Assembly: GCA_963809035.1 (NCBI GenBank)
Contig: CAWEHV010000002.1
Coordinates: forward strand, 1,312,113-1,376,112
DNA from: an uncultured Thermoplasmata archaeon
GTDB taxonomy: Archaea > Thermoplasmatota > Thermoplasmata > Lutacidiplasmatales > UBA184
Direction of reading: 5' to 3'
Length of the DNA: 64,000 bases
Positions 1-30,371 of the stretch are shown piece after piece (the stretch's first letter is position 1; every line of letters begins with the position of its first letter). The notes under the pieces are model-generated. The model worked only from the letters and a program-made list of their open reading frames with translations. It did not search any database and was not told the DNA's origin. The translations under genes and the position numbers were made by a program.

Positions 1-101
1 GCTATCTCCGACGTTAGAGGCTCCCGCAGCGGGACTGCGCGGACTTCGGGCCATCGGCCCCAACACGCGCCTCGCCGGGTCGCCTGATCCTCGAGTTTGG
101 G

Positions 102-3100
102 TTGGGGATATACGTCTGCGAACGATTGCGCTCGGCCAAAGGGGGTGGAATGCGCGCATCAATCACGATTGTTCTCGCATGCGTGGTATTGCTTTCGGGA
201 CTGGCTGTCGGCCAGTCCTTCGTAGATCCGGAACCAGCCCCTACGACCACGTTCGCAGCGAGCCTGGCTCCTCCCACCCTGGGGGCTGCCGTCTCTGAGT
301 CTTTCTCGGCAAGCACGTCCGGCACGACGTCGGCAATCCCCGTTTCCTCAGGGGACGCCGTCTACGTCTTCGTGTCCCAAAACGGTACCATCGGAACCCC
401 CTCGGTGAAGGCCTCCTCCACCCTACCATTCGTCCAGAGAGGTCAGGGCGCTCGCGGTACCTTCCTCCGCACCACTCTCTTCGAGGCCGACAACGTACCG
501 GCTTCACCCAGTCTGACGGTCACGGTCAGCTTCACCGAGGCGCAGACGTTCGCAGTCGCGGTGGTCGACCTCGTCGGAGGCGGGGCCTCCCCCAATGACA
601 CGGTCGGAGGATTCGCCACCGGCGGATCCGGACCCGGTGCCCAGCCCAAGGTGAATACGACCGTTGCCAACGACCTCGTCCTCGGGGTGATCGGCGACAC
701 CTACAACGGGCCCGTGACGGGATATGAGGGGTCCACCACGGTGACCAGCACTTCGGTCGGCTCGCCCGCGGTGATCACGCTCGGTGTGGTAAGTCAGACC
801 GATCCGACCACGGGCTGGTTCACCATCTGGGGCAACATGGGAACGAAGACCACCAGCTCGGCATCGTTCGCCATCGCGATCAAGACGCAAGGCATCGTGC
901 CGCCTCCGACTTTGTACTCGGTCAGCGTCGACCCGAGCGGCCTTCCCTCGGGTACGAGCTGGTCCCTCACCCTCGGAGGGACTCTTGGGTCCAATCTCGC
1001 TCCGGGAGCAATTATTTTCAGCGAGCCCAATGGGACGTATTTCTACACTGTGTGGACGGTCCCCGGTTATGAGGTCACTCAGAGCTCCGGCAGTGTCACG
1101 GTCGCCGGGGCCAACCCTTCAACCGTCGATATACAATTCGCGACGTTTCCGCCCAACTCGAAGTCCATCCAGCATGTGGTCGTGATCATGCTGGAGAACG
1201 AGAATTCATCTTCAGTGTGGAGCAAGACGTCGGGGGGATTCTACGAACAGTACCTCGCATCCCACTATGGTAACGCTACCGACTTTTACGCCGCGTGCCA
1301 CGACTCCGCCCCGAATTACATGGCGGTCACGGGTGGCAGCACGAACAATGAGTGTGTGGAAGCGAAACAAACGGGAATCTCTTCGGGCCGGAACATTGGC
1401 GACCTGATGCAGGCGGCCGGATTGAGCTGGGACGAGTACATGGAATCTCTGCCCCCCACTTCCACGATTCCCTGCAACACGTCCACCGGCATCACCAATT
1501 ACTACAACGGGGGGCACAACCCATTCATTGAGTACTCTGACGTAGTGAACCCCCTCTCCGTATGCGAAAACCACGTGTTCAGCAGCCAGGAGTTCAACGC
1601 CAGCCTCGAACACGGGAAGCTCGGTAACTATTCCCTCTACATCCCGAACGATTTCGACGATGGTCACACTACCGCCTATGGGGTCTTGGGGAACCTCTCG
1701 AATGGGGACGCGTGGCTCAAGGGCTTCCTTGGGCCCATCCTGAACGGCACCGAGAACGCTAGCGGCACCGGAAATTATGGGCTCCAGGCGACCCGGAACG
1801 AAGTCGCCCACACGGCGTTCTTTATCCTTTACGATGAGGGGAAGTCGGCCAGCTACACGGGGTACATTTCCGGTCCTCCCCTCCCGGCTTGTGAGGGAAT
1901 CAGCTCCCCACCGGACGCGAGCGTCTGTGGAGGGCAGACCTACATGAGCGTGGTCAGCCCGTACTCCCTCGGGACGACCTGGACCCAGGACGCGACCCAG
2001 TACAGCGTGGAGTCCACGATCGAGTGGCTCTTCGGCTTGGGGAGCGACGGCGGGAATGACAGCACACCCTACTTCCCCCCCCTGACCGGCTTGTTCGCGT
2101 TCCAGTCGAATGGGTTCGGGTCCAACGTTACGTTCGAAGAATCGGGTCTACCGACGGGGACCAACTGGTCGGTGACCCTGGGGGGCGTCTCGCAAAGCGC
2201 GAAGGCGTCGGAGGGCTCTCACACCTCGTCCATCGTCTTCGTCGAACCGAACGGGACCTACCAGTATTCGGTCGGGCCGGCGGGGGGGTTCATGGCGAGC
2301 CCTTCGAGCGGTCAGGTGACGGTGAACGGAGCGAGCAAGTCCGTCTTCGAGACTTATGCTCTGCCCTATTCGGTCACCTTTACGGAAACAGGGTTGGCTT
2401 CCGGCACGACCTGGAACGTGACGATGGGCTCCACCGTGGGGCACGCGGATTCGCCCACCAGTATCGTCTTCCCCGTATCGAACGGCACCTATCCCTTCAC
2501 CGTGGGTCCGATCCTCGGCTACTCCGTGGCTCCGGGCTCCGGGAACGCGGTGGTGAGCGGGTCCTCGATCACGTACCCGATCACCTTCACCGCGATCACC
2601 TATCCGGCGACGTTCACCGAGAGTGGCCTACCGTCGGGCCGGACGTTTCAGGTGACGGTCAACGGCAACACGATGAGTCTCACCACGGACGGGTCGACCG
2701 ATACGCTGACTTTCACCGGCCTTGCGAACGGGAGCTATCCCTACACGATCACGGGCAACTCGGGATGGTACCAGTCAACTCTTGCCTACACCGGGACAGT
2801 CGTGGTGATAGGCGGAGCGCTCACCGAGCCCACCCTGGTCTACACGCAGGTGACGTATTCCGTGGTCTTCTCCGAGAGCGGCTTGCCGTCGGGCCAGACG
2901 TTCCAAGTCACGGTTAACGGCAGCGCGCAGGAACTTACGACGGATGGGGCGACGGACCCACTGACATTCACCGGTCTTGTGAATGGTACCTACCCCTATT
3001 CCGTCACGGGGATCGCGGGATGGTACCAATCCTCCATGCCTTCCACCGGAACCGTACCGGTGGCGGGCGGTTCGGTCACCGAGCCTACCCTCGCCTACAG

Positions 3101-5123
3101 CCCGCTGGAGACCTTTTCGGCCGTGTTCTCGGAGAGTGGCTTGCCGTCAGGTCAGACGTTCCAGGTCACGGTCAACGGCGTGCCGATGAGCCTTACGACG
3201 GACGGAGGGACAGATACGCTGACGTTCCCCGGCCTGACGAACGGGACCTACTCATACACGGTCACCAGCGACCCCGGATGGTACCAGTCCACTCTAACCT
3301 ACACTGGATCCGTTGTGGTGGATGGCACGGCCGTCATCGAACCGACCCTGGTCTACACCCTAGTGACGTACTCGGTGGCGTTCTCGGAGGCCGGGCTTCC
3401 CTCCGGACTCACGTGGAACGTTTTGGTCAACGGCGTGAGCGAGTATCTCACGACCGACGGCGGCACCGATAGCCTCACCTGGACGGGCTTAGCGAACGGG
3501 ACCTTCTCGTACACTATCACCGGCAACTCGGGGTGGTCCCAGCTCGTTCTACCCTACAGTGGAACGCTCACGATCAGTGGCGCACCCGTCACCGAACCAA
3601 CCCTCGTGTATGCGCAGGTGACGTATTCCGTAGTGTTCTCCGAGAGCGGCCTGCCGTCCGGCCTGACGTTCCAGGTGACGCTCAACAGTGCGGCAGAGAG
3701 CGTGACGACGAACGGAGGGACGGATTCGCTGACTTTCACGGGCCTTGCGAACGGCACGTATAGCTACACGATCGCGGGGATCTCGGGGTGGTACCAGCCG
3801 ACCCTCCCCTACACCGGGACGGTCGTGGTGAGTGGGGGGGCGGTCGCCGAGCCGACCCTTGTTTACGCGCAAGTGACCTATTCGGTGGTCTTCTCGGAAA
3901 GTGGCCTACCGTCCGGACAGGCGTACCAGGTGATGGTCAACGGTGTGGCGAAGAGCCTCACGACCGACGGCGGCACGGACAGTCTCACGTGGGCGGGCCT
4001 GGCGAACGGGACCTATCCCTATACGATCACCGGCGACGCGGGCTGGCACCAGAGCACCCTCGCGTACGGTGGGAACGTCGTGGTGAACGGCCTAACGGTG
4101 ACGGAGCCGACGCTCGTCTACAACCAGGTAACGTACTCGGTGATGTTCTCGGAGCGCGGACTTCCCTCTGGTCTCATGTGGACCGTGACGGTCAACAGTA
4201 TGCCGGAATCCCTTACGACCGACGGCGGCACGGACAGTCTCACGTGGACGGACCTGGCCAATGGGAGCTACGTCTACACGGTCTCTGGCAACGCGGGCTG
4301 GCACCAGAGCACCCTCCCGTACAGTGGGAACGTCGTGGTGAACGGCTTGTCGGTGACGGAGCCGACACTCGCCTACAACCAGGTGACGTACTCGGTGAAG
4401 TTCTCGGAGAGCGGACTTCCATCCGGTCTGACGTGGGCCGTGACGGTCAACAGTTTGCCGAAATCCCTTACGACCGACGGCGGCACGGACAGTCTCACAT
4501 GGACGGGCCTGGCCAACGGGACTTATCCCTACACGATCACCGGCAACGCGGGCTGGCACCAAACAAAGCTGAGCTACAGTGGAACACAAACGATCAACGG
4601 CGGGTCGGTGACCAAGTCGACGCTCGTCTACTCCCAGGTGACGTACTCGGTGAAGTTCTCCGAGAGCGGACTCAAGTCCGGACTCACGTGGAAGGTGAAG
4701 GTGAACGGCGTGACGAAGTCCCTGACGACCAGCAGCGGCACCAACACCCTCACCTGGACCGGCCTCGCGAACGGGACCTACAGCTACTCGATCACGGACA
4801 ACTCCGGCTGGCACCAAACCACGCTGGCCTACAGCGGCTCGCTGACCGTGAACGGCGCCACGGTAACCGAGCCGAAGCTCGTCTACTCCCAGGTGACGTA
4901 CTCGGTGACCTTCACCGAGAGCGGACTCCCGTCGGGAACGACGTGGTCGGTCAAGCTGAACGGGGTGACCAAGTCCTCGACCGGCCCTTCGATCGTCTTC
5001 ACGGAACCGAACGGGACGTTCAGCTATACGGTAGGGCACGTGGCAGGCTACACCGCTAGCCCATCGTCCGGGTCGGTGACGGTAAGCGGAGCTTCGGCCG
5101 CGGTCAGCGTGCAGTACAGCTGA
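102..5123 (+). CDS. Giant secreted protein: signal peptide + phosphoesterase (phospholipase C / acid phosphatase AcpA family) domain + ~24 tandem ~90-aa 'FxESGLPSGxTW' repeats; likely true start at M17 (nt 150)
   Basis: N-terminus 'MRASITIVLACVVLLSGLAVG' is a signal peptide. 'IQHVVVIMLENENSS', 'NDFDDGHT' and 'YDEGKSASY' match the conserved HVVxxMxENRSFD / NDxHP / DEGGG blocks of the phosphoesterase family. These are followed by ~24 tandem repeats 'VTYSVxFSESGLPSGxTWxVTVNG..TDGGTDSLTWTGLANGTY.YTI.G..GW.QSTL.Y.G.V.V.G..VTEPTLVY'. Numerous N-x-S/T sequons. No C-terminal TM. Confidence 0.75.
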   Translation: MGIYVCERLRSAKGGGMRASITIVLACVVLLSGLAVGQSFVDPEPAPTTTFAASLAPPTLGAAVSESFSASTSGTTSAIPVSSGDAVYVFVSQNGTIGTPSVKASSTLPFVQRGQGARGTFLRTTLFEADNVPASPSLTVTVSFTEAQTFAVAVVDLVGGGASPNDTVGGFATGGSGPGAQPKVNTTVANDLVLGVIGDTYNGPVTGYEGSTTVTSTSVGSPAVITLGVVSQTDPTTGWFTIWGNMGTKTTSSASFAIAIKTQGIVPPPTLYSVSVDPSGLPSGTSWSLTLGGTLGSNLAPGAIIFSEPNGTYFYTVWTVPGYEVTQSSGSVTVAGANPSTVDIQFATFPPNSKSIQHVVVIMLENENSSSVWSKTSGGFYEQYLASHYGNATDFYAACHDSAPNYMAVTGGSTNNECVEAKQTGISSGRNIGDLMQAAGLSWDEYMESLPPTSTIPCNTSTGITNYYNGGHNPFIEYSDVVNPLSVCENHVFSSQEFNASLEHGKLGNYSLYIPNDFDDGHTTAYGVLGNLSNGDAWLKGFLGPILNGTENASGTGNYGLQATRNEVAHTAFFILYDEGKSASYTGYISGPPLPACEGISSPPDASVCGGQTYMSVVSPYSLGTTWTQDATQYSVESTIEWLFGLGSDGGNDSTPYFPPLTGLFAFQSNGFGSNVTFEESGLPTGTNWSVTLGGVSQSAKASEGSHTSSIVFVEPNGTYQYSVGPAGGFMASPSSGQVTVNGASKSVFETYALPYSVTFTETGLASGTTWNVTMGSTVGHADSPTSIVFPVSNGTYPFTVGPILGYSVAPGSGNAVVSGSSITYPITFTAITYPATFTESGLPSGRTFQVTVNGNTMSLTTDGSTDTLTFTGLANGSYPYTITGNSGWYQSTLAYTGTVVVIGGALTEPTLVYTQVTYSVVFSESGLPSGQTFQVTVNGSAQELTTDGATDPLTFTGLVNGTYPYSVTGIAGWYQSSMPSTGTVPVAGGSVTEPTLAYSPLETFSAVFSESGLPSGQTFQVTVNGVPMSLTTDGGTDTLTFPGLTNGTYSYTVTSDPGWYQSTLTYTGSVVVDGTAVIEPTLVYTLVTYSVAFSEAGLPSGLTWNVLVNGVSEYLTTDGGTDSLTWTGLANGTFSYTITGNSGWSQLVLPYSGTLTISGAPVTEPTLVYAQVTYSVVFSESGLPSGLTFQVTLNSAAESVTTNGGTDSLTFTGLANGTYSYTIAGISGWYQPTLPYTGTVVVSGGAVAEPTLVYAQVTYSVVFSESGLPSGQAYQVMVNGVAKSLTTDGGTDSLTWAGLANGTYPYTITGDAGWHQSTLAYGGNVVVNGLTVTEPTLVYNQVTYSVMFSERGLPSGLMWTVTVNSMPESLTTDGGTDSLTWTDLANGSYVYTVSGNAGWHQSTLPYSGNVVVNGLSVTEPTLAYNQVTYSVKFSESGLPSGLTWAVTVNSLPKSLTTDGGTDSLTWTGLANGTYPYTITGNAGWHQTKLSYSGTQTINGGSVTKSTLVYSQVTYSVKFSESGLKSGLTWKVKVNGVTKSLTTSSGTNTLTWTGLANGTYSYSITDNSGWHQTTLAYSGSLTVNGATVTEPKLVYSQVTYSVTFTESGLPSGTTWSVKLNGVTKSSTGPSIVFTEPNGTFSYTVGHVAGYTASPSSGSVTVSGASAAVSVQYS

Positions 5124-5589
5124 CCCGGCCCACGTCGGGACTGTCCTCCCTCGCAGGAGGCCCAGCGGGCGGCGTAGGACAGGTCAAGCTGAGGGGGCAC
5201 TAAGCGCAAGCCCCCCGTGCGACGACGTTCGCGATGACGAAGCCCGGCTGTATGATGAGCCCGGCGAACGCTCCGACCGAATGGACTGCTCGAGCGCCCT
5301 CATCCGCCGCGCGCAGCCTTCCTCGTACCGTCGACCCTTACCCGCCCGGCCTGATTGGGCGGGATATCGATTACAGCCACCCCGGCTTGGACCCGCTAAA
5401 TGGCTGGGGTATGTGTATGGGGCATTGCAACCACCCCATCTCGAGAGTGACATGTCGGAGGGGGGATTTACTGAATTCTTCAAATCCCCTGGATGGGAGC
5501 TCTGGCAGGGCCGCGTCTTCCAGGAACCGGATCTCTTGGTGGAAGACGCATAGTAAGCTATATGCCAACCCTATGCTGTCCCATAGTCG

Positions 5590-5826
5590 ATGATTACGAC
5601 GATCCAAGTTACGCCGGCCACCCGCGAACGACTTGCCGCGTTGAAAAGTTCCCCTCGAGAGACCTACGATGAGCTCCTGAACAAACTACTGTCTCTGGTC
5701 CCACAGGGAGACGATGAAGGGACGTACACCGATGCGTTTCGCATGGGGCTGCTGAACGCTCGACTTGACATCCGATCGGGCCGCGTGACGGAGCACGAGC
5801 AGATCAAGAAACGGTTGGGCCTCTGA
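5590..5826 (+). CDS. Small antitoxin-like protein (archaeal VapB-like / DUF217-type fold)
   Basis: 78 aa, 'ITTIQVTPATRERLAALKSSPRETYDELLNKLLSL' resembles archaeal 'TIxVSxExxxRLxxLK...SYDDVIxxLL' antitoxins; immediately followed by a RelE-like coding remnant. Confidence 0.5.
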   Translation: MITTIQVTPATRERLAALKSSPRETYDELLNKLLSLVPQGDDEGTYTDAFRMGLLNARLDIRSGRVTEHEQIKKRLGL

Positions 5827-5832
5827 CGCGCA

Positions 5833-6090
5833 CATGGTCGATTAAGTGGTCGGACCTCACCGGGTCGGTACCGCGACCTGCACAGACTGGATCGGACGGC
5901 AGCCCGAGGGGTTGTAACCCGGCTTGAAGCTTCGGCTTTGGACCCAACCCACTATTTCACGAGATTAACGACTTCGGACGAATACAAGCTTCGTATTGGT
6001 GACTACCGCCTCCTGGCGGTGCTCTCTCTCTCAGAACAGACCATTCTGGTCGAACGAGTAGACCATCGGTCGCGAATTTATGACCGCTGA
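5833..6090 (+). pseudogene. RelE/ParE-family toxin remnant (no ATG, apparent frameshift) downstream of antitoxin
   Basis: Frame ending TGA at 6088-6090 encodes '...DEYKLRIGDYRLLAVLSLSEQTILVERVDHRSRIYDR'. This matches the conserved RelE C-terminus (YRLRVGDYRIIY...ILRVGHRKDVY). Another frame gives an N-terminal-like 'WSIKWSDL', with a stop at ~5925; there is no intact ORF with a start codon. Confidence 0.5.
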
Positions 6091-6306
6091 CGGTGATCTC
6101 TTCGCGGGCGGTCCCCTCCGGGCAACCGGTGGACCAGTTGCACCTCCCGGAGCGCTGCCATGCGCGTATTGCCGGGCAATTGCAGGAAGGTCCGTGGTCG
6201 TTCCGGAACGTACTGTGATCTCGTCGGGGGTCATCGGGAGAGGAGGGAAGACCGCGGTCTGTTTCAGGTTTGTCTGATCAACCAAGTATACATTTCAGAA
6301 TCCTTC

Positions 6307-6642
6307 TTAGGGTCTTTCCACGGGCCACTTGGTCGCTCGCCGAGTGGACTCGGAAATGGGCGGACGTGCCGACTGGTCATAATTCAGTTTCATCGCAACC
6401 ATCGTGAGCGACAGCGCCAACGTCGCCGCGTTCGCGAGGATCACCGGTACCGATTGGATCAGGAGGCCGTAAATCAGCCACGTGAATGTACCAACGGAGA
6501 AGGCGAGGAATGCCACTAGCGAAATCTCCTTGGCGCTCTTGAGTCGCCATACTCGCATCACTTGGGGCACAAACGCGCCGGTCGTGCAGAACGCTGCAAT
6601 CAACCCGATTAGAGTAATCCACCAGTCCGCGAGGGCAATCAC
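6307..6642 (-). CDS. SemiSWEET / PQ-loop (MtN3-like) small membrane transporter
   Basis: 111 aa, 3 predicted TM helices, conserved 'FVPQV' PQ-motif after first helix. Confidence 0.55.
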   Translation of the reverse strand: MIALADWWITLIGLIAAFCTTGAFVPQVMRVWRLKSAKEISLVAFLAFSVGTFTWLIYGLLIQSVPVILANAATLALSLTMVAMKLNYDQSARPPISESTRRATKWPVERP

Positions 6643-6802
6643 TCCCCGGTCCAGTCCGGTCAGCAGAAGAGGCTGGCGGGGTCTGCCTTTCCTCAGTGGA
6701 CACCATCAGCGGAGACTCGACATCACGCCGTTGAGTCCGGTTTCATCGTGAGTGCAAGTTCGGTTGCGACCCAGGCCCTGAGAACCGAGCTCTCTCGATA
6801 CC

Positions 6803-7836
6803 TTACTCCAGTTCCCTTCCGGCTCGCTGCTGCTCCTCGGCTCTTCTATCGTAGGGGTAGGTGACCTCTAACTCGCTCGCCTTGTTCAGTACCGCGACCT
6901 GGTCCTTACTGAGCGACCAGCCGGTCGAGCCCAGGTTCTCTGAGAGCTGCTCGAGGGTCCGTGCGCCGATTATCGGAGCGGTAACGGCTGGATGGCTGAG
7001 GACCCAGTTGAGCGCCACTTGCGACATGGTCTTCCCCGCCTCCTGAGCGACCGCCTCGACGGCACGGACGATACGATTCGTTCGGTCGTTCTCGAACCGA
7101 CTCGCATAGAACTCCACGTCTTCGGCGTCGGCGATCCGAGTGCCGCTGGGAGGCTTCCGCACCCCCTCTTGTACTTCCCGGTCAGGAAGCCACCGGCCAG
7201 CGGGCTCCAGGGCAGGACCGCGATATTCTCTGCAAGGCACATGGGAAGGAGCTCGAATTCGGTGGCCCGGGCGTACAGACTGTATTGGGGCTGGAGGCTG
7301 ACGGGTTCATGCCAGCCTCGAGACCGGCACAACTGCAGCGCCTTCTCGAACTGCCAGGCGCGGTAATTGCTGATGCCTACGTACCGGACCGGTCCGTCCT
7401 CTACCAGTCTATTGAGAGTGCCAAACGTCTCTTCCAACGGAGTAAGCGGGTCCCACGCGTGGACCTGCAGGAGATCGATGTAATCGGTCTGCAAGCGGCG
7501 GAGACTCTCGTTGACGGCATGGAGGAGATGCTTTCGGGACAGCCCGACGCGGTTCGCGCCCTCGGCCGTCCGGAACCGGGCCTTGGTCGCCAAGACAATG
7601 TCCTGGCGATCGTGATGGGAAAGCCACTTGCCGATGATCTCTTCGGACTTGCCGGATGAGTAGACATTCGAGGTGTCGAGAAAGTTGCCGCCCGACTCGA
7701 CGAAGCGGTCCAGCACCCGGTGACTGGCCTCCTCCTCGGACTGCCAGCCAAAGGTCATCGTTCCGAGGCAGAGCTCGCTAACGAGAACCCCCGTCCGTCC
7801 CAGTTTCTTCAGCTTCATGCCTCCCCCAAGACTCAT
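6803..7836 (-). pseudogene. Aldo/keto reductase, split into two ORFs (6970-7836 and 6803-7240) by a frameshift near nt ~7190
   Basis: N-terminal ORF has AKR motifs: 'LGRTGVLVSELCLGTMTFG', 'IDLLQVHAWD', 'RYVGISNY', 'WSPLAGGFLTGKY'. C-terminal ORF has 'QVALNWVLSHPAVTAPIIGARTLEQL'. Combined length ~344 aa, matching typical AKRs. Confidence 0.7.
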
Positions 7837-8016
7837 CGAATAATCACCCTTCCCGGGCCCCCGACCTCAGCGAGAGCCCGGCTGTCCGCAAGGCAACTGC
7901 CTGAGGAATCTCTGTCGCCCGAGGGTGGTTGTAAATCACGTTGCACCCACTCTTCCGCCTGACGGCGGTGACCGCCCGGGGGCAACGGTAGCCAAGCTTC
8001 TTGATTCAGGAGGAGT

Positions 8017-8907
8017 TTGCGAATCTGGTTGCTGATGGGGGCGTCGCGAGGTCTACTCTGGCCAATCGTCCGACTGGGCGCAGGGACGGCCCTTGTGGCG
8101 CTGGGTTGCGCAGTCGAGATTGTTGAGGACCAGAACGTCTACACCATTTCTCAGTCGATCTCACTTCCGGCCTTGCTTGCCATCGTCGTGGGATTGGTCC
8201 TCGTGGCAACAGGATACTCCCGGGTGCTTCGATGCACCTACGGGGGCACTCGCAGAATCGCGTTCGGGGTCGGAGTGGCGGCCGGCGCTGCCACATACCT
8301 CATCTCATGGTGGTGGTTGTTGACCTACGGGTTCACTGCCTATCTCGAAGCATCTTCTGTCGGGCTGGTGCTCTTCGGCGGAGCCGCCATGGTGCAGGTC
8401 GGATGTCGGTTCGCGACCGCCCCCAAGTTGAGCTTTACAGATCGCGACGCACAGATTCGAGGGAATGCGCGTCCGTCACCCCTCTTCTTGTCCAGTAGCG
8501 CGCGGACCGCTGTCGCCTGGGCTCTTATCGGAGTGGCTGTCGTGCTCTTAGGCGAGATGACCCTGAATCTTGGGTGGCTCAACAACCAGGCGGCGACAGT
8601 CGATCCGGCCTACCAGTACCTTGCAATCGAAGTCATGGGACCCGCCGCGTGGTGGCTCGCCACAGGTTACTCTGGCCTAATCGACAATCTTTCCCCGCGC
8701 CCCGCACTATGGGTCGGGTTAGGGGGGATAGGGGCCGGTGCCGCCTTCGTGCTTGGGGGGTACGCGTGGTGGTCCGGTTGGTCGCTCTATCCCGAGCTCG
8801 GGCAGGTCATCTTCATCCTGTTGACCATCACCGGCCTGGGCCTTTGCCTCTTCTCCGCCAGTTCGCTCCGACGCCGCACTGCACTTGCCGCGGGCATCGC
8901 GGTGTAG
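8017..8907 (+). CDS. Polytopic membrane protein of unknown function
   Basis: 296 aa, ~8 hydrophobic helices, Trp/Gly-rich loops; no recognisable family motif. Confidence 0.4.
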   Translation: MRIWLLMGASRGLLWPIVRLGAGTALVALGCAVEIVEDQNVYTISQSISLPALLAIVVGLVLVATGYSRVLRCTYGGTRRIAFGVGVAAGAATYLISWWWLLTYGFTAYLEASSVGLVLFGGAAMVQVGCRFATAPKLSFTDRDAQIRGNARPSPLFLSSSARTAVAWALIGVAVVLLGEMTLNLGWLNNQAATVDPAYQYLAIEVMGPAAWWLATGYSGLIDNLSPRPALWVGLGGIGAGAAFVLGGYAWWSGWSLYPELGQVIFILLTITGLGLCLFSASSLRRRTALAAGIAV

Positions 8908-9014
8908 ATCCCTCGACCGCGCAGTCGACCCCCCCATTCACGAGTGATCCGGCCGTCAGCTCCTGGAATATCTCACGAAAGCACCTAAGGTGCAAATCTG
9001 TGGGTGCATCTGAG

Positions 9015-9240
9015 GTTACACCCACCGCCCGGCTCCAAGTGAAACAGTTCGTTGATTGGCAATCGAATACGCTAACGCTAGCAGTTAGTGTGCCAATGGC
9101 CGTTCTGTGCAATGCAACTACTCGAGGAACCTCTGTCGCACAAGAATGGTTGCAACTCCGATTACACCCGCCCCCCGGCGCCAAGCAGAACACTTCGTTC
9201 AACAACGATCGAATACGCTGATGTTAGCAGTCGGTCCGTC
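9015..9240. repeat. Two copies of an ~85-nt direct repeat (9015-9100 and 9155-9240, ~75 % identity) in intergenic DNA at the high-GC/low-GC boundary
   Basis: 'ttacacccaccgcccggctccaagtgaaacagttcgttgattggcaatcgaatacgctaacgctagcagtta...' versus 'ttacacccgccccccggcgccaagcagaacacttcgttcaacaacgatcgaatacgctgatgttagcagtc...'. Confidence 0.6.
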
Positions 9241-9403
9241 GATGGGTGTGTAATGCATTACGCATTCCACAGGAGTCTCGATGGTTGCATCCAGGCCGGG
9301 GCCCTGGCGCAAGATGAGAAGCAACCAACCCGGCTACAAACCGACCAGGGGCCGTCATCCTGAGAAGAACTTAATTCATTGAAACTGGGTCCTCATAGAG
9401 TGA

Positions 9404-10432
9404 ATGGTCGATATCACCGTAATCGTTCTTGCACATGACCGAACGGAATACATAGTCGGGGCCCTCCGGAGCTTACTGCGCCAGACGCTCCCGCGGGATT
9501 CGTTTGAGGTCGTTATCGTCAAGAACTTCGTTCTCGAAGAGGCCGACCGGCTTGCGGCCGAATGTGGATTCAAATCCATACTGGCCGAATCGAAAGCGTA
9601 TGGCGAGAATCTCCTAAAGGGCCTCAACAATTCCTCTGGAGAATTCGTCTGCCTTCTCGATGAGGATGACCTCTTCGTTCCCAAGAAGCTTGAAACGGTT
9701 CTGGGAGAGTTTAGTAAACACCCACGAGTGGGGTCTTGTTCGAATAATTTTGGAATCTCGATAGTAAAGGCGGATACCGTCCAGAGCATTGGGGTCACGG
9801 AGAGCAGATCGTAAGGCCCGCGTTCGAGCTGGTACGATTTTATCTTGGGCCCCCACACCAGCTTCGCCAACTCGCAAAGCTACCTCCGTTGAGCCCTGAC
9901 TTCAATTCGAGTTCGATTACTTTTCGGCGTGATCTTCTCACGACAGCAATGCGCGATGCGATTCGCAAGCTGGATGGGGGCGGAGATACATTCCTGTTTT
10001 ACTGCGCCGTTACATCAAAATTGGAATTGGGTATTGGTTCGGATATTCTGACCCTGTACCGACTTCACTCGGCAAATAGGTCCTCAGGGTTAGGGCCTCC
10101 TGGAAGTGGAGGATGGGTCCGGATTCGCCGGTACCGTACTAACCGTTCAGTTCAGTGGTCGATGCTGGCGAACGGGGCTGTTCGACGCACTCGACGACCC
10201 TTCAGTTGGGCGATCGGTTCGGGCGTTGGCAGCCTATCATGCATTTTACGCCGCAGAGATGGACGCAAGTCCGGCTCGCAAGAGAATCCTAGAATCTGCC
10301 TCTCGACTGACCCAGTTCCGCGACACATATACGGCACAGGTAGCACCCAACGTTCTCCTTCCGACACTTCTGTACCTGACATCACCTCGCATAGCACAAT
10401 GGTTCTCCTTCATTCGGCAAGCTTTGCGATAA
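9404..10432 (+). pseudogene. Family-2 glycosyltransferase broken into >=3 frames (9404-9814, 9889-~10100, 10106-10432)
   Basis: N-terminal fragment 'VDITVIVLAHDRTEYIVGALRSLLRQT...FEVVIVKN...LLDEDDLFVPKKLE' carries GT-A/GT2 motifs including DxD. The ORF stops at 9814 and continues in other frames. Confidence 0.55.
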
Positions 10433-15293: not shown

Positions 15294-15532
15294 GGCGCAG
15301 CCTAACGGGGTGGGTGTGTCCAGTTCGACGATCCGTGCCGGTAGTGCCGGGTGAAAGGGAAATCATATCGGTGGAAAGGCCGCTTTGTTCTAAGTTCGCA
15401 ATTCTGTCAATGGTGAAAGTGGCGAGAATCGTTAACGAAACGAAACGTGGTACGCGTAGAACTCCCCAGGATAGTTGAATATAGTGAGCAGACCGAATGC
15501 TTTGTACAGGGGGAGGGTGAATCCGGCCGCTG

Positions 15533-16738
15533 TCAAAAAGATCCATAGGCCGCAGGAGACGTAGAGAAGGGCGACGAGGTGGCCGAGTTCTCGGTACTTG
15601 GGCATCTCACGAAGAGCAGTCCGGAAAGCGCGAACCCACTGAATCCGACAAGGAGAGCCTCCGACGGAGGAGGATAGAAAATGGCGTATCGCACAGATAA
15701 TCCGGCGCCGAGGAGGGAAAAGAAATTGAGTGGGTAGCTGAACCCATAGGAGATTGGAACTATCGATGTCGCGACCCCGAAGGAGGGTTGAATCGCTCCG
15801 CTAGTGAAATAGGTAAGGTTTCCAAAGTAGAACGGAGCGTTAAGGAGCAACGCCAGCGCAACCGCCATTGTTATCCCGCCAAACAGCCGAAGCCCAGTAC
15901 CAAGCGACTGCCGCGTCAATCCGAGTGAGAGTGGAAGAAGGAGTAGGAGGGGCAATACGTAGACCGGGCCAAAAGGAACAAATGCGAAGATGAAACCAAG
16001 AACCAGCGACAGCAGAATCACCGGTTTTGCCCAAGAACCCTGAGCGATACGTAATGAGAGAAGGAAAACCGTGGGCAAGAGAAGGTCAAAGGGAATCGAA
16101 CCGCTGGCGTCGAAGACGTCGATAAAAAGATAGGGACTGAGCAGAAATAGGATTCCCCCTATCAGCGCAAACTTTGGCTGCTCAAGATGGGGTTCAAGGA
16201 GACGTTGAAATGAAACCGCGCCGACAAATGAGAATGAGATCAGTGTGAGAGGCTCGAGGAGGGCGGGCGGAATTCCAATGATTGAGAGCATTGAGAGGAG
16301 GACATAACTCGCGGGCTGGGAGGAAGAATAGCCTAGCACTCGAGGATTCCACTGGGAGAGGTATACTGCTATACCATCGGTTGAACGCGTGCCTGGGAAA
16401 AGCAGGAAGAAGTCAGGCGTGATCAGTTGGCCGTTCGAAAACATTGTGCGGAAGAGGACCAAGATTAGAGTGAGCAATGTTCCATAGCTGCAAAGCCGCC
16501 ATTGGACTCGTGCGCCCCAAAACAGGGGCGGTGATCGATCGCCGTTGGAGATGTTGGCCACGGAAGTCACGTTGTCGATTCGTTCATCCTGAGTGCCGGG
16601 ACGAATCAAAACTCCTAAATTGATGTGGTGAGTCCTGGCGGTCAATTCTGGACAACACGTTTCGGTACCCACGCTCGGTGAGTTCCCCGATACGCTCGGC
16701 GGAATAGGCTTGCGCGGCCAAAGTCCTCGCTGCCTCAC
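15533..16738 (-). CDS. Polytopic membrane protein (possibly a GT-C-type glycosyltransferase or polymerase; family unassigned)
   Basis: 401 aa with ~10 hydrophobic helices, Pro/Leu/Phe-rich; sits among glycosyltransferase genes. Confidence 0.4.
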   Translation of the reverse strand: MRQRGLWPRKPIPPSVSGNSPSVGTETCCPELTARTHHINLGVLIRPGTQDERIDNVTSVANISNGDRSPPLFWGARVQWRLCSYGTLLTLILVLFRTMFSNGQLITPDFFLLFPGTRSTDGIAVYLSQWNPRVLGYSSSQPASYVLLSMLSIIGIPPALLEPLTLISFSFVGAVSFQRLLEPHLEQPKFALIGGILFLLSPYLFIDVFDASGSIPFDLLLPTVFLLSLRIAQGSWAKPVILLSLVLGFIFAFVPFGPVYVLPLLLLLPLSLGLTRQSLGTGLRLFGGITMAVALALLLNAPFYFGNLTYFTSGAIQPSFGVATSIVPISYGFSYPLNFFSLLGAGLSVRYAIFYPPPSEALLVGFSGFALSGLLFVRCPSTENSATSSPFSTSPAAYGSF

Positions 16739-17668
16739 CCAACCTTTTGCGAAGGCCGGTGTCCTCGATCAACATACGAAAGGCAGAGGCCCAGTCTTTG
16801 GGGTTACAAGAAGGGACAATTATCCCGTTTTGTTTATGGCGAACGAAGTCACGGACGGGCGCCAGATCAGATACTATCGAAGGTGTGCCATGAAACGCTG
16901 CCTCGATAACAGTTCCGCAGTACGCTTCTCGGAAGGATGGGAGGACGAATGCGCATGATCCGGGAAGTGCCTTCCGCATTTCGTCGTTCGACAAAACGGT
17001 CTCGAACCTGACGTTCAATTTCCAACCCTGAAGCTAGGAATCGAAATCGTTGTCGCTCCTCTCGTAAGACTGTTGCCTTGACTGGAACACCCTGTTGGTA
17101 GAGTATGTGAAGTGCCTTGAGAAACAAACCGGTATCACGACGCTGGTCCGGCCCCCACGTAGAGGAAGTGGAAAGGGTCACACAGCACCGTCTCGGACGA
17201 AGCCCATGACCGCGGTACCAGTTCAGGTATCACTTCCATTTTCGAGGAGGCGCCGGGATACAACTTGGTAAGTTCTTTCCGCACAGCCGTGGTCTCCGCG
17301 ACGATCCAATCTGCCACTTGCACGCACAAACGGTCGTTATGGGCAAGCATGAAATATTTCGGAGCCGACCAGAAGCGTGTCCGAAGGGGAAGCCGTTCCC
17401 ATTCCTTCAAAGTGACGTCAACCACATGGAAGACGCGAGCACTCCAGTGAGGAGCGTTGCGGCTGAAAGCCCATCCTAGGCCGCCCCCTCGGGCATCAAT
17501 GATATCAGCCCCCGACTTTTTTGCCGAAGCTGCGAGGAATTTCGATACCGCCAGGTTCGCCGTCCATCCGCCAACATAAGGGTAATGGTAGTTAGGGATA
17601 CCACTGACGTGAACGCCACGAATAAATGAATTCTGCGAGATTTGGACGTACGAGTGGATGATGGTCAC
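16584..17668 (-). pseudogene. GT4-family glycosyltransferase broken into three overlapping ORFs (17135-17668, 16867-17181, 16584-17018)
   Basis: C-terminal fragment 'FREAYCGTVIEAAFHGTPSIVSDLAPVRDFVRHKQNGIIV' is the GT4 E-x7-E region. N-terminal fragment has a GT4-like N-domain. Overlaps imply two frameshifts. Confidence 0.5.
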
Positions 17669-18051
17669 GTCGTGCCCCTCCTAGCCATTTCCATTGCGAG
17701 CTCCCCCGTAAAAACTGACGCGCCCAACATCGTGGTTGAGCTGAACGGGTCATGCGGGACAAGGTAGGTAATCGAAAGTGACTCGCTCATCGAATCCCCG
17801 GGCCGATTGAGAGCATCATGTGTGTGAGGGGGGAGAATATCCAATGTAATCGCAAACTCTTCACGTCGATGTGGTTCGAGGTTGCAAAATCCCGATAGAG
17901 CCGCCGGCCACAGGACCAACGACTGTCGGAGAGGATTTTGAAGTGACTCATGCTCGCGAAGAGATTCACGGCGCAAAACCTCTCGAAAAGTGATAACGAG
18001 GACACCAAGAGAAGAATACTATTCCTGTCACGAGCATCGGCAATTTGTGAC

Positions 18052-19336
18052 TTACAGTAAGCGTGCTCGGAAGAAAGCTATCTGATTACTTGCCGTGCGC
18101 TCGGCAGTGAAGGTCGGTGGTATCACTTCCAAGCTGGCTGCGATCTTGTCTCGAGTTTGATTGTTCCCAAGCAAATTCACCACCCGGTCAGCAAATAGAG
18201 TCGCGCTTCCGACCGGTACTCGAGGAATGGCAGATCCAAGATAATCATATGCTGGAAGGTCATAGACGATAGGGACGCAACCGTAAGCAGCTGCCTCCAT
18301 TACGGCCAAGGACCACCCTTCCTCATAGCTGGGGTATGCGAACAGTTTGGACGCGGCGAGGAGGTCGCGTTTGTCGTCGTCTGAAAGATGACCTCTCAAT
18401 CTGATGAATTCGGTGAGTCCCACTTTCTCTATGGCTAGTCGGATTTGTCGTTCGAACTGCGGCGATTCGAAATCTCCGCCGACGACCAAGCAAGCGGTGG
18501 GCAGCCGGCGATGGACTTCAGCCCAAATGGATACGAGATCGAATAGTCCCTTCATTGGAGAAAGCCGACTGACAAAACACACATCAATGGGTCGGTCGTG
18601 CGCCCTTAACGTGTCAGGTTCCGGATAGCTGTCAAGGAAGATTTCGTCGTGGAGGACGGGGCCTGAAAACCTCCATCCCGACTCAGAAAGAATGCGTACT
18701 TGGTCAATACTCGGCACGAACCTGCAGACCTTTGTGATGACCAGTGCGGCTTGGTTGACAAGCCAGGGCACCGGCGCACCGAATTACGCCGCCCCGTCGT
18801 CTCGGGTGCCGCCAGGGAGCAGGGGTGAGGTGATGAAATGCAATGACTAAAGGCAGGTTTGACCTTTCTGCGATTCGGCGCGCAGGGACGATATCTAGTA
18901 GATTGGGTGACGCCGCGATGACGATGGATTTGGTGGGGATCTGAGTGGAAGGCGCGACCGGGATGCCAGGGGCTACCGTATTCGTCAGCGCACCGACCAG
19001 AGTCCTGAGGGGTTCCAAGAGGCTACCAGCCTCTTGGTTGATCACGGTTCGCCTAGTCTGCCCAATTGAGACCACTTGGCTGCACTTTCCTTCAAACTCG
19101 TGTGGAAGGTTCGTATACACTGATACAAAGTGCCCCTGCCTGACCCACTCCTGCGCCAAGCGAACGATATGGATTAGTCCTCCTCCGCCTCCTCCCACCA
19201 GCGACGGTCCCGACCTGGTACGGACGGTCACCATATGAAATATCTGGATGTGAAGAGGCGGGTTTCCGGAGGGTTGTGGCACTCCGGGAAAATTCGACAT
19301 TAAATCTTCCAGATTAGCGGGCTTAGGTCTCCGCAT
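18052..19336 (-). pseudogene. GT4-family glycosyltransferase split by a frameshift (18704-19336 N-domain; 18052-18771 C-domain)
   Basis: N-domain 'GGGGGLIHIVRLAQEWVRQGHFVSVYT'. C-domain 'AYPSYEEGWSLAVMEAAAYGCVPIVYDLPAY'. The two ORFs overlap by 68 nt in different frames. Confidence 0.55.
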
Positions 19337-27158: not shown

Positions 27159-30100
27159 GTGATGTCGCCTATCGATTCGATGGCGCGCCGCAACTCCAGA
27201 GTTCGTAGATTTTGGATCGTGGTCCCCCTTGTCGCCATCTTGAGCCTTTCCGGCCTTGTTGGAGCGATTCCCTCATCCTCCGCTGGTGGTTCTGGGAACG
27301 GATTTCATGGGGCAGTCGGGCACGCCACAGGCGAGGGCCGATTAGGGGCGGTCACGCCGAATCTGGGTCGCGTGACCATGGGTTCGAGCTGGCGAGCCAA
27401 CGCGGCTCGAAGTCCCTCGGCGTCATTCGCGCCATTTGTCCGGTCAACGTTGATTCTCCTGAACAGCACTCTCGCCGCCGGGAACGATTTGGCCGGGAAT
27501 GGAGAGGGTCCGTATGGGGCCGTACTGATACCAGGGACTGACTTACTAGTGATTCCGGACGAGGGAAGCGGCTACCTTTCGGTTTTGAACGTCTCGACGA
27601 ACCAGTTAATCACCGTCGGTCCGGTGGGAACGGCTCCTTCAGCCATTGCATTCGACCCGACGCGCGACCTCCTAATGGTCACTGACGAGGGAGCAGGCCA
27701 AGTCAGCATCGTGTCAGCCACGAATTACTCGGTCTTGGACCGGGTGGATGTCGGAAGCAGCCCCGATGCCATCGCCTACGACCCACTCAACGGCACCACC
27801 TACGTCGTGAACGGTAACTCAAACAACGTGACGGTCATCAACGACAGCTCCATGGCCGTGATCGCAACGATTTCGGTTGGGAATTACCCTGACGGCGTCG
27901 CAGTGGACAACCACACGGACCAGATTTTCGTCACCGATTACTACGATGATAACGTTTCGGTTATCAACGCCTCATCCAACACTGTCGTCAAGACCGTCGG
28001 GGTGGGTTCGGGTCCCAAGGGACTCGTATTTGACTATCTGTCGAACAAGGTCTACGTCGCCAACAGCGCGGGGGAAGATCTCAGTATCATCAAGGACAGC
28101 ACAGACTCCGTCACGCACACTCAAGAATACGGGGCCTACACCAGCCCCCAAACAATCGCGCTCGACCCGGCCAACGATACCCTCTACGTCACGGAAGGGT
28201 TCGCGGCCCTTTCGCCGGTGAACAATGTCACCTTGGTGAACGTCTCCACGGGTGCGGCCATACTGAATATATCGGTCGGACTCTACCCGTACGGGATCGC
28301 CTACGATCCCGCGGATCAGTCTGTATTCGTCGTCAACTCCGCTTCTGAGAACGTGAGCCGCGTCTCGACCATCTCGAACAACGTAACGGCCACCATTTCG
28401 GTCGGAACCCATCCCCACGCGATCTTCTATGACCCGAGTGCCGGTGAGATTTGGGTCTCGGACACAGACTCAAACAACCTCACCGCCATCAGTCTGACGA
28501 GTGGAAAACTCGTGGGGTACGTACCCGCGAACACGTTCCCGTCCGGCCTCGCCTTCGACCCCGCCCTGGGACAGCTACTAGTGACCGACGAGTCCTCGAA
28601 CGAGGTCACCCTGATAAACATCACGACCCACTCGGTCACCGACACGGTGCCGGTCTCGTCGCAGCCGATCGCGGCTAGCTTCGATTCGCTCAATGGCGAC
28701 TACTACATCTCCACATCCCTGGATGGCGGTGCCCTGGCCGTGCTTTCCTCGGCAAGTGACTCTGTCACCGGCAACGTCACGTTGTTGGGAGTTTTGACCC
28801 GTTCCTCGGTATTTGTCCCATCTCTGAATGAAACGTATGTCTCGGACCTAGGGTCCGCTACGATTTCGATTGTCTCCGACGTGACGAACACGCGCGTGAA
28901 GAACGTGGTCGTCGGCACTTCGCCGCTCGGGGTCGCCCTCGACCCGGCCCGAGGAGAGGTGTTCGCTGCCGATTCGGGTTCAGACCAGGTTTCCGTGATC
29001 AACACCTCGACGCAGACCGTCGTGGCGACCGTGCCGGTCGGTTCACAACCTTCGAGCGTCGGGTATGACCCCGCGGCTGGCGAAGTGTTCGTCACGAATT
29101 CGGGTTCGAACAATGTCAGCGTGATCAATGACACGACCAACACAGTCATCGCGAATCTCGCCGTTGGCGCACTCCCGATTGGAGTTACCTACGACCCGAC
29201 TAACCAATTGATGCTCGTCACGAACGAGAATCAGGGTACGGTCTCCATGATCCAAACAGCGAATACGACCTTCGCTCTCACGTTCCAGGAGTCAGGGTTG
29301 CCCGCGAGCACCCTCTGGAATGTTTCCGTGGGTGGAACGTCCCACCAATCGACGAGCTCGTCCGTAGTCTTCTCTGAACCGAACGGGACAGTCGCGTATT
29401 CGATCGGACACGTGGCAGGATACCACCCCGCGCCCTCGTCCGGGTCGTTGGTCGTCAGCGGCCAGCCTTCCATCGTCAACGTGACGTTCGCCACGAACGC
29501 CGTCCAGTTGTACAACGTGACGTTCAGTGCCCAAGGGTTGCCTTCGGGCGCGACCTTCGGGGTCACGCTTAACGGTTCTGCGATGTCCTCGTTGGGCGGT
29601 CCGCTGGTCTTCGAAGAACCGAACGGGAGCTTCCCCTTCAGTGTAAGTTCGGTCACGGGCTATCGCGCGACGCCGACGAGTGGGGCGATCGTCGTCCACG
29701 GGACTCCTGCCGACCAAACGATTACATTCACCGAGAATGCTACTCCTACCTACACGGTCGACTTCGAGGAATCTGGTTTGGCCCCGGGAACCAGGTGGTC
29801 GGTCACCTTCAACGGTTCTCTCAACGCCTCCACCACCTCGGAGATCGGCTTCAAAGTCTCGAGTGGAACCTACACGTACAACGTCACACCCATCCCCACA
29901 TACTCTGCGAGTCCCTCCCACGGCTCCGTGCCAGTCACTGGCCCGACCGCGGTCGATATCGGCTACACGATCCCAGCATATGTCGCGACGTTCACGGAGT
30001 CCGGGCTTCCCAGTTCTACCAACTGGTCAGTGACCCTTGGTGGCGAGCCATACTGGACGACCTCCGCATCGATCTACCTGGACTTGGCCAACGGCAGTTA

Positions 30101-30371
30101 CCCATGGACGGTCTCGACCGTGAAAGGATTCACGGCCACTCCGGTAAGCGGGAAGCTCTCGGTTAGCGGAGCGAATGTCACCACGCCCATCAGCTTCGCT
30201 CAGAACACCACCACCAACGTGCCGCCCTCCAACAACACCTCGAACGGAGGAGTATTGGGCCTCTCCGACCTCGATTGGGTTGTCATCGGGGTATTCGGAG
30301 CATTGGCGGTAGTGGTACTCGCGGTCGTTCTGACGAGGTACCGGCGACCCGGCGCTCCTCCCGAGACCTGA
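27159..30371 (+). CDS. Surface protein: signal peptide, ~14 YVTN beta-propeller repeats, 7 'FxESGLPxxTxW' repeat modules, C-terminal TM anchor
   Basis: 'RRFWIVVPLVAILSLSGLVGA' signal; repeated 'VxVGxxPxxIAYDPxxGxxYVxN'; repeats 'FALTFQESGLPASTLWNVSV', 'YNVTFSAQGLPSGATFGVTL', etc.; C-terminus 'LSDLDWVVIGVFGALAVVVLAVVLTRYRRPG'. Confidence 0.8.
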   Translation: MMSPIDSMARRNSRVRRFWIVVPLVAILSLSGLVGAIPSSSAGGSGNGFHGAVGHATGEGRLGAVTPNLGRVTMGSSWRANAARSPSASFAPFVRSTLILLNSTLAAGNDLAGNGEGPYGAVLIPGTDLLVIPDEGSGYLSVLNVSTNQLITVGPVGTAPSAIAFDPTRDLLMVTDEGAGQVSIVSATNYSVLDRVDVGSSPDAIAYDPLNGTTYVVNGNSNNVTVINDSSMAVIATISVGNYPDGVAVDNHTDQIFVTDYYDDNVSVINASSNTVVKTVGVGSGPKGLVFDYLSNKVYVANSAGEDLSIIKDSTDSVTHTQEYGAYTSPQTIALDPANDTLYVTEGFAALSPVNNVTLVNVSTGAAILNISVGLYPYGIAYDPADQSVFVVNSASENVSRVSTISNNVTATISVGTHPHAIFYDPSAGEIWVSDTDSNNLTAISLTSGKLVGYVPANTFPSGLAFDPALGQLLVTDESSNEVTLINITTHSVTDTVPVSSQPIAASFDSLNGDYYISTSLDGGALAVLSSASDSVTGNVTLLGVLTRSSVFVPSLNETYVSDLGSATISIVSDVTNTRVKNVVVGTSPLGVALDPARGEVFAADSGSDQVSVINTSTQTVVATVPVGSQPSSVGYDPAAGEVFVTNSGSNNVSVINDTTNTVIANLAVGALPIGVTYDPTNQLMLVTNENQGTVSMIQTANTTFALTFQESGLPASTLWNVSVGGTSHQSTSSSVVFSEPNGTVAYSIGHVAGYHPAPSSGSLVVSGQPSIVNVTFATNAVQLYNVTFSAQGLPSGATFGVTLNGSAMSSLGGPLVFEEPNGSFPFSVSSVTGYRATPTSGAIVVHGTPADQTITFTENATPTYTVDFEESGLAPGTRWSVTFNGSLNASTTSEIGFKVSSGTYTYNVTPIPTYSASPSHGSVPVTGPTAVDIGYTIPAYVATFTESGLPSSTNWSVTLGGEPYWTTSASIYLDLANGSYPWTVSTVKGFTATPVSGKLSVSGANVTTPISFAQNTTTNVPPSNNTSNGGVLGLSDLDWVVIGVFGALAVVVLAVVLTRYRRPGAPPET

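Follow-up and report, generated by a model that had tools for sequence, protein, structure and literature searches.

A putative exported AcpA-type phosphoesterase with an old, stable array of pilin-like β-sandwich units in an uncultured Thermoplasmata archaeon

We analysed a window of 64,000 nucleotides (the whole stretch of DNA under study; contig CAWEHV010000002.1, assembly GCA_963809035.1) and in it a gene at 150-5123 on the forward strand. The host is an uncultured Thermoplasmata archaeon of peat and soil metagenomes; homologues of the gene product come from Thermoplasmata metagenome-assembled genomes (MAGs) and from JGI/ENA metagenome contigs. A sequence-only reading had proposed a secreted phosphoesterase of the phospholipase C (PLC)/AcpA family fused to a long repeat array, and this core of the proposal was borne out by Pfam, by a profile match to AcpA (2d1g) and by Foldseek. 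With a probability of roughly 70 %, we favour the interpretation that the product is a Sec-exported, modular AcpA-type phosphoesterase carrying an old and stable array of CnaB-like units, and that it is most likely released from the cell or held there non-covalently.

Gene and predicted product

A single open reading frame (ORF) spans 102-5123 on the forward strand. Counted from its mechanical start, a TTG at 102, it encodes 1,673 aa. Independent gene calls on other assemblies (P0001, P0078) start at the ATG at 150 (MRASITIV...), which has GGGGGTGG, a Shine-Dalgarno-like sequence, just upstream. This ATG is the likely start codon and gives a coding sequence of 150-5123 (+, stop codon included) for a 1,657-aa protein. 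The window translation is identical to P0078, which sits on a 2.3 Mb contig, and the cluster at 90 % identity includes P0076, named 'alkaline phosphatase family protein [Thermoplasmata archaeon]' at NCBI. We conclude that the ORF is a real gene. A scan of a genome collection with the single protein did not recover the window's own genome and yielded two matches only, to a Thermoplasmata MAG (an orthologue of 42 % identity) and to a deltaproteobacterial MAG (25 %).

The product consists, in order, of a putative signal peptide, an N-terminal domain (N-domain) of ~230 aa, one β-sandwich unit, the AcpA/PLC-family phosphoesterase domain and 12 contiguous β-sandwich units. The signal-peptide-like N-terminus (150-212, +; MRASITIVLACVVLLSGLAVG, then QS) has a hydrophobic maximum of 2.41 over 19 residues and would be cleaved before Gln22. 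Paralogues combine a like N-terminus with a C-terminal transmembrane (TM) anchor and hence suggest a type I topology. Alternatively, the hydrophobic segment could be an uncleaved signal anchor that keeps the enzyme near the membrane and lets the array point outward as a distal fibre. The length of the hydrophobic core (16-17 residues) and the lack of a C-terminal anchor would fit such an arrangement. We nevertheless consider it quite improbable, given that small residues occupy positions -3 and -1 (A-V-G before the Gln), that the C-terminal TM helix of the paralogues argues for removal of their N-terminal segment, and that orthologues with the same N-terminus have no array.

The N-domain (213-911, +) is conserved in the orthologous phosphoesterases L003, L006, L008, L010 and L012; it could be aligned with five relatives and is 31 % identical to that of L003 (E 4e-10). 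A profile of the six sequences matched nothing in the PDB or Pfam, and a word-index search with the N-domain returned zero homologues. Modelled with AlphaFold2 (AF2) without an alignment, it reached a predicted local distance difference test score (pLDDT) below 50.

Catalytic domain

The catalytic domain, which belongs to the alkaline-phosphatase superfamily, occupies 1167-2117 (+). PF04185 matched residues 393-646 of the 1,673-aa ORF with an E-value of 8.5e-16 (58.5 bits against a cutoff of 23). A profile built from 22 homologues and compared with the PDB found Francisella AcpA (2d1g; E 8.6e-15) and several PLCs, and the alignment paired E43/N44 of AcpA with E349/N350. The AF2 model of residues 1-684 was confident for the first β-sandwich unit and for the catalytic domain (pLDDT ~85-95 in the catalytic part). 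With this model, Foldseek again gave AcpA 2d1g as the best PDB match (E 1.3e-11; ~15 % sequence identity), followed by PlcN/PlcH, a glycerophosphoethanolamine phosphodiesterase, the plant enzyme NPC4 and then the wider alkaline-phosphatase superfamily. The protein is a genuine member of PF04185, the AcpA/PLC family.

Enzymes of this family use a hydroxyl nucleophile, which is Ser in AcpA and Thr in NPC4 (T158) (PMC9837106). Among the 22 homologues, H342, E349, N350, H384, S386, H456, D562 and E563 are invariant or near-invariant, with Ser386 fully invariant, and the invariant residues match the E/N, hydroxyl-nucleophile, His and D-E set of NPC4 and AcpA (PMC9837106). Ser386 (codon 1305-1307, +) lies in the motif CHDSAPNY and is the predicted nucleophile, placed by its position in the motif without structural superposition. 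The protein thus resembles Francisella tularensis AcpA and the other PF04185 enzymes (PlcH/PlcN, NPC4) in catalytic fold, in predicted secretion, in the E-N motif at the first strand, in the predicted hydroxyl nucleophile, in the His residues and in the D-E pair. It differs from them in being archaeal, in its small core of only ~320 aa at ~15 % identity, and in its additional conserved N-domain and 13 β-sandwich units. A Pfam scan of the protein detected no PLC-type C-terminal accessory domain.

PF04185 spans both phosphomonoesterase and phospholipase activities, and instead of a monoesterase that scavenges phosphate the enzyme could be a phospholipase C or phosphodiesterase whose substrates are membrane lipids, such as those of competitors. 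The PLCs and the glycerophosphoethanolamine phosphodiesterase among the next-best matches point in this direction, as does a distant homologue named phosphatidylinositol-3-phosphatase by JGI. We regard a lipid substrate as unlikely. AcpA is the best match by both sequence and fold, the predicted nucleophile is a Ser like that of AcpA and unlike Thr158 of plant NPC4 (PMC9837106), and NPC4 has an extra C-terminal domain that is absent from AcpA (PMC9837106) and has no detected counterpart here. Because of the Ser nucleophile and the lack of a detectable PLC-type C-terminal domain, we favour a phosphomonoesterase or broad phosphoesterase activity over that of a phospholipase, as far as alignments and models allow such an assignment.

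Composition of the repeat array

The tandem array extends from 2118 to 5120 (~3 kb), close to the ~2,900 nt of repeats first proposed. It is built from short (A) and long (B) units, all on the forward strand. Unit A1 (912-1148) stands apart from the array, between the N-domain and the catalytic domain; it was found with the hidden Markov model (HMM) of the short unit and was modelled by AF2 as all-β with a pLDDT of ~90. At the same position, the orthologues L003 and L006 have a CarboxypepD_reg-like β-sandwich (assigned by eye). The array itself opens with A2 (2118-2363) and A3 (2364-2597), which matched the HMM with E-values of 1e-35 to 5e-37 and share 54-63 % DNA identity with other units; A3 was modelled with a pLDDT above 95. 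Nine long units, anchored by the motif GL[PAK][STA]G, follow at 2598-4895: B1 (2598-2852), B2 (2853-3110), B3 (3111-3365), B4 (3366-3620), B5 (3621-3875), B6 (3876-4130), B7 (4131-4385), B8 (4386-4640) and B9 (4641-4895). They are 85-86 aa long, with 255 nt each except for one of 258 nt. The terminal short unit A4 (4896-5120; HMM E 4e-36) closes the array. The four short units measure 75-82 aa and are ~54-67 % identical to the long units at the DNA level. The protein thus has 13 units (nine long and four short), 12 of them contiguous, where 24 had been counted before.

Tandem Repeats Finder reported a period of 255 nt with 6.2 copies, 74 % matches and a score of 1132, and a repeat finder placed nine copies at a spacing of 255/258 nt. 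A period of 240 nt, as implied by the earlier comparison of 4141-4380 with 4381-4620, does not describe the array, since these two segments are 28 % identical, which is the chance level. In register, the long units share 60-81 % DNA identity and 55-73 % protein identity in pairwise comparisons. The similarity is real at the nucleotide level and not confined to the protein: 302 12-mers are shared, compared with 0.7 in shuffled sequences, and 287 of them lie at offsets of n x 255, so that the array gives diagonals of moderate DNA similarity at these distances. The supposed near-identity of neighbouring units did not hold, as the longest exact run common to units is 37 nt and no 38-mer is shared. 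For the same reason, the hazard that the array poses to assembly, of which the sequence-only reading had warned, is small.

The most similar pair of tracts lies across the B6/B7 and B7/B8 junctions (4036-4261 vs 4291-4516, +), with 91.6 % identity over 226 nt at an offset of 255. Over 714 nt the identity of the tract is 82 %, against a background of ~65-76 % for other adjacent units. We read this pair as the trace of an older duplication or conversion event, not as a near-identical copy.

Long Arg-rich ORFs occur in other frames within the array, at 3788-5059 (+) and 4092-5039 (-). We rejected both as genes; the GC-rich repeat gives rise to them incidentally. In the protein variant P0077, the tail behind the frameshift reads into the former.

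Age and stability of the array

Between units, the synonymous divergence (dS; Nei-Gojobori) ranges from 0.33 (B7/B8) to 2.7, and the ratio of non-synonymous to synonymous divergence (dN/dS) from 0.13 to 0.59. Between strains, by comparison, the gene is of equal length in two further metagenome assemblies, L001 and L002, with four differences in 4,974 nt, one of them within the array. All five full-length versions of the gene (window/P0078, L001, L002, P0076 and P0077) have nine long and four short units, and L005, a sixth contig that ends in unit B8, is collinear up to that point; this sample consists of assemblies and not reads, and represents one very close population (at least 99.9 % identity) plus one mosaic contig. 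Two apparent length variants were considered as repeat-number alleles and rejected. P0076 (1,572 aa, 85 aa shorter) is identical to residues 86-1657 with a V-to-M start and is an N-terminally shortened gene call, and P0077 (1,636 aa) owes its length to a frameshift in unit B9.

Each long unit's best protein match lies at 67-74 % identity inside its own protein and at 65-76 % in other proteins, so that the internal match is hardly the closer one, and nothing in this comparison points to concerted evolution or a recent expansion. We conclude that the array is old, dating from early tandem duplications, and now stable, with diverged units that are under purifying selection and a unit number that is fixed among strains. 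The dS values, the equal unit counts and the lack of any sign of concerted evolution leave the earlier claims of recent duplication or ongoing unequal recombination, and of a repeat number that varies between strains, without support.

Periscope proteins, a class defined for bacteria (SasG, Rib, SraP and others; PMC9704523), offer a comparison. Like the present protein, they are single chains in which the functional head comes first, at the N-terminus, and a long series of β-sandwich repeats, each folding independently, comes after it. A periscope-type surface stalk, in which near-identical DNA repeats recombine so that strains differ in repeat number and in the projection of the enzyme, would accord with the genuine DNA-level periodicity, with the one 226-nt tract pair at 92 % identity, with a unit fold class that includes known stalk domains and with relatives that are clearly anchored and stalk-like. 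We consider it highly improbable that the protein functions in this manner. The repeats of periscope proteins have high DNA identity, whereas units here share 60-81 % (91.6 % over 226 nt at best), with exact runs no longer than 37 nt and a dS of at least 0.33. Periscope repeat number varies among strains, in contrast to the equal copy number in five complete assemblies and a partial one (all from one close population apart from the mosaic contig), with the 85-aa-shorter P0076 being merely a shortened gene call. Furthermore, periscope proteins are attached to the cell opposite the functional head; the protein here is archaeal, has no anchor and shows no sign of concerted evolution.

Fold of the units and the wider family

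We modelled the segment A3-B1-B2 with AF2, using 34 aligned triple-unit segments. The model was all-β with a pLDDT of 96.5 and a predicted template-modelling score of 0.77, and in it A3, B1 and B2 each form an eight-stranded β-sandwich, with ~2 residues between units. The best Foldseek match was the stalk of the Bacillus anthracis TIE protein (6fwv; E 6e-9, TMq 0.58). In total, 36 PDB matches had E-values of 1e-3 or lower, nearly all of them to Gram-positive pilins, the TIE protein, SdrD and SpyCEP. The models therefore suggest that the units are CnaB/pilin-like (prealbumin-like) domains by fold, while by sequence they stand outside those families.

This last point emerged from Pfam. No family listed for the window protein or for A3-B1-B2 reached its gathering score on the repeats, and a scan of the 34 triple-unit segments brought up no convincing match. 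Of Cna_B and SpaA, only SpaA appeared, and below threshold: the best E-value was 0.001, in 2 of the 34 segments, and the window segment scored 16.7 bits against 23.1. Matches of the repeats to Copper-bind, FlgD_tudor, TadZ_N and DUF1214 were disregarded as summed sub-threshold hits. The units also lack a conserved Lys, and B1-B5 and B7 are entirely Lys-free, which excludes Lys-Asn/Asp isopeptide bonds. Hence the units are like CnaB/prealbumin-like stalk domains (pilins, SdrD B repeats, TIE 6fwv) in their tandem β-sandwich fold and differ from them in having no Pfam match above threshold, no isopeptide Lys and an identity of 10-16 %. An N-G-T motif is kept in each unit at a hairpin; it could serve N-glycosylation or just form a turn.

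The family has at least 7,853 representative proteins, the number that the unit profile matched at E-values of 1e-3 or lower; 4,068 matched at 1e-30 or lower. In 214 high-scoring family members, the median number of units is 9 and the maximum 44 (e.g. P0105, 3,552 aa), so that 13 units are unremarkable. The array studied here is dominated by the 85-aa unit, which is the rarer kind in the family.

The C-terminus and its relation to anchored relatives

The signal peptide, head and array are followed by a C-terminal TM helix and an Arg cluster in 126 of the 214 array proteins. The heads that precede the same unit family elsewhere include the S53 pro-domain, thermopsin and YncE/NHL propellers; it is known that these archaea commonly have extracellular peptidases of the thermopsin and S53 families (PMC9287336). 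Unit HMMs detected five further secreted proteins with the same repeat in the window, at 27159-30371, 40951-44754 and 44893-49878 (+) and at 54808-57597 and 57703-60459 (-). These paralogues have two to five units each and two thermopsin and three YncE/NHL β-propeller heads, and all five have a hydrophobic N-terminus and a C-terminal TM helix with an Arg cluster, to which a Pro-rich tail is usually added. A 928-aa phosphoesterase with seven units (P0009) is likewise anchored. In these anchored relatives, the array is, on the predicted topology, a membrane-rooted stalk.

The protein at 150-5123 shares with the anchored Thermoplasmata exo-enzymes (thermopsin, S53/sedolisin, YncE-propeller) the repeat family, the signal peptide and the head-then-array order. 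It differs in its phosphoesterase head, in an array made mostly of the 85-aa unit and, above all, in its end. The others continue past the array into a TM helix, an Arg cluster and a Pro-rich tail. Here, unit A4 is itself the C-terminus (...VSVQYS*), and the hydrophobicity maximum at this end is 0.81. No TM helix, PGF-CTERM or other tail was present at its C-terminus, and no TM-like remnant was found downstream of the stop codon in any frame. Thus, the surface stalk envisaged by the sequence-only reading describes the layout of the wider family, including the five window paralogues, and fails for the protein itself, which has no anchor.

The array-less orthologues L003, L006 and L008 (~41 % identity) comprise an N-domain, a β-sandwich and a catalytic domain, after which they end. 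We conclude that a soluble secreted phosphatase acquired the array without an anchor. Since there is no anchor and the nearest array-less orthologues are plain secreted enzymes, the enzyme would most likely be released or held only non-covalently.

The array might, on the other hand, be a binding or retention module and no spacer. Through it, the enzyme, once released, would adhere to the glycocalyx of its own cell, to arrays on the anchored paralogues, or to polysaccharides or humic material of the peat, and the phosphate that it frees would stay near the cell. Several observations would agree with this idea. The array is kept under purifying selection (dN/dS 0.13-0.59) despite the missing anchor, and catalysis does not need it, as the array-less orthologues indicate. 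Sixteen array proteins end flush with a unit, and half of these (8/16) are rich in long (B) units, compared with 18/214 overall. Moreover, there is a second enzyme, complete and anchorless, whose C-terminal units are of the B type, the thermopsin P0012/L014; P0012 lies inside an 81-kb contig. Against a retention module, no ligand-binding family was matched in Pfam, the structural neighbours are stalk domains and not lectins, and some of the flush-ending proteins may have been cut by contig ends. We therefore treat retention as a tentative idea that is rather unlikely to be correct.

A broader hypothesis extends this idea to the whole family. The 77-85-aa unit would define a very large, unmodelled and mainly archaeal family of stalk domains that forms the scaffold of a canopy of exo-enzymes on Thermoplasmata cells, and the anchorless arrays rich in 85-aa units (the phosphatase and thermopsin P0012) would be a docking variant that binds the arrays of anchored paralogues non-covalently. 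This is speculative, and we rate it as distinctly unlikely in its full form.

Variants of the locus and neighbouring genes

Contig L005, from another sample, carries an in-frame variant of the gene at 5236-9661 (matching window 150-4575). In the first third of this variant (signal peptide, N-domain, A1) the DNA identity is 68-79 %, and from about window position 1400 onwards it is 99.6-100 %. Upstream of the variant, L005 has genes that bear no relation to those of L001. The sample that yielded L005 also contains contig L011, which has a 5' part of the window type (window 1-1385) and ends near the point of convergence. The variant is either a genuine recombinant (an allele or a paralogue) or an artefact of chimeric assembly. 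Adjoining the variant gene, at L005 2308-4533 (-), is a paralogous phosphoesterase of 741 aa with a C-terminal TM anchor and, by eye, several CarboxypepD_reg-like β-sandwich repeats in place of A/B units.

Just downstream of the gene, L001 contains ~3 kb of extra DNA (15313-18338) that encodes a PKD-repeat protein of 836-917 aa. It is flanked by an imperfect direct repeat of ~40 nt, of which the window has a single copy (5423-5462). Further downstream, at ~7168 of the window, a deletion of 1 nt relative to L001 splits an aldo-keto reductase gene into the ORFs 6803-7240 and 6970-7836 (-), while the gene is intact in L001 (338 aa). The split gene is either a pseudogene or an assembly error. Scans of the window for tRNA genes and Rfam families were both empty, and a scan for bacterial promoters and terminators was uninformative, the host being an archaeon.

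Discussion

Taken together, our findings argue for the following sequence of events. The multi-domain phosphoesterase would be exported via the Sec pathway, and the hydroxyl of Ser386, amid the conserved E-N, His and D-E residues, would attack as the nucleophile. The enzyme would thereby most likely free phosphate from organic phosphoesters outside the cell. The nearly linkerless units would probably give an extended rod, and their N-G-T sequons may be glycosylated. The array itself would stem from old tandem duplications and be stable by now. Released or only non-covalently held, the enzyme would carry it as a bulky spacer, stabilizer or docking module and not as a membrane-rooted stalk, which is the weakest step of this proposal.

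Several points weigh against the interpretation that we favour. The cleavage of the signal peptide was called by eye. The assignment of Ser386 follows the position in the motif, and HMMER left the segment around Ser175 of AcpA unaligned. The rod-like geometry is extrapolated from the ~2-residue spacing in a model of three units. The tract pair with 92 % identity indicates that some duplication or conversion took place after the main expansion. The constancy of copy number holds over a short evolutionary distance only, and comes from assemblies. Finally, the role that we suggest for an anchorless C-terminal array is a guess.

The protein is an ordinary modular secreted exo-enzyme that adds modestly to what is known. 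Hypervariability does not follow from a long in-frame repeat array on a surface enzyme alone. Our results place an AcpA-type phosphoesterase among the Thermoplasmata of acid soils, fused to a widespread CnaB-like module for which Pfam has no model that matches above threshold. The same module occurs on many extracellular proteases and β-propeller proteins of these archaea, and the finding thus bears on how they place hydrolytic enzymes and gain phosphate in peat.

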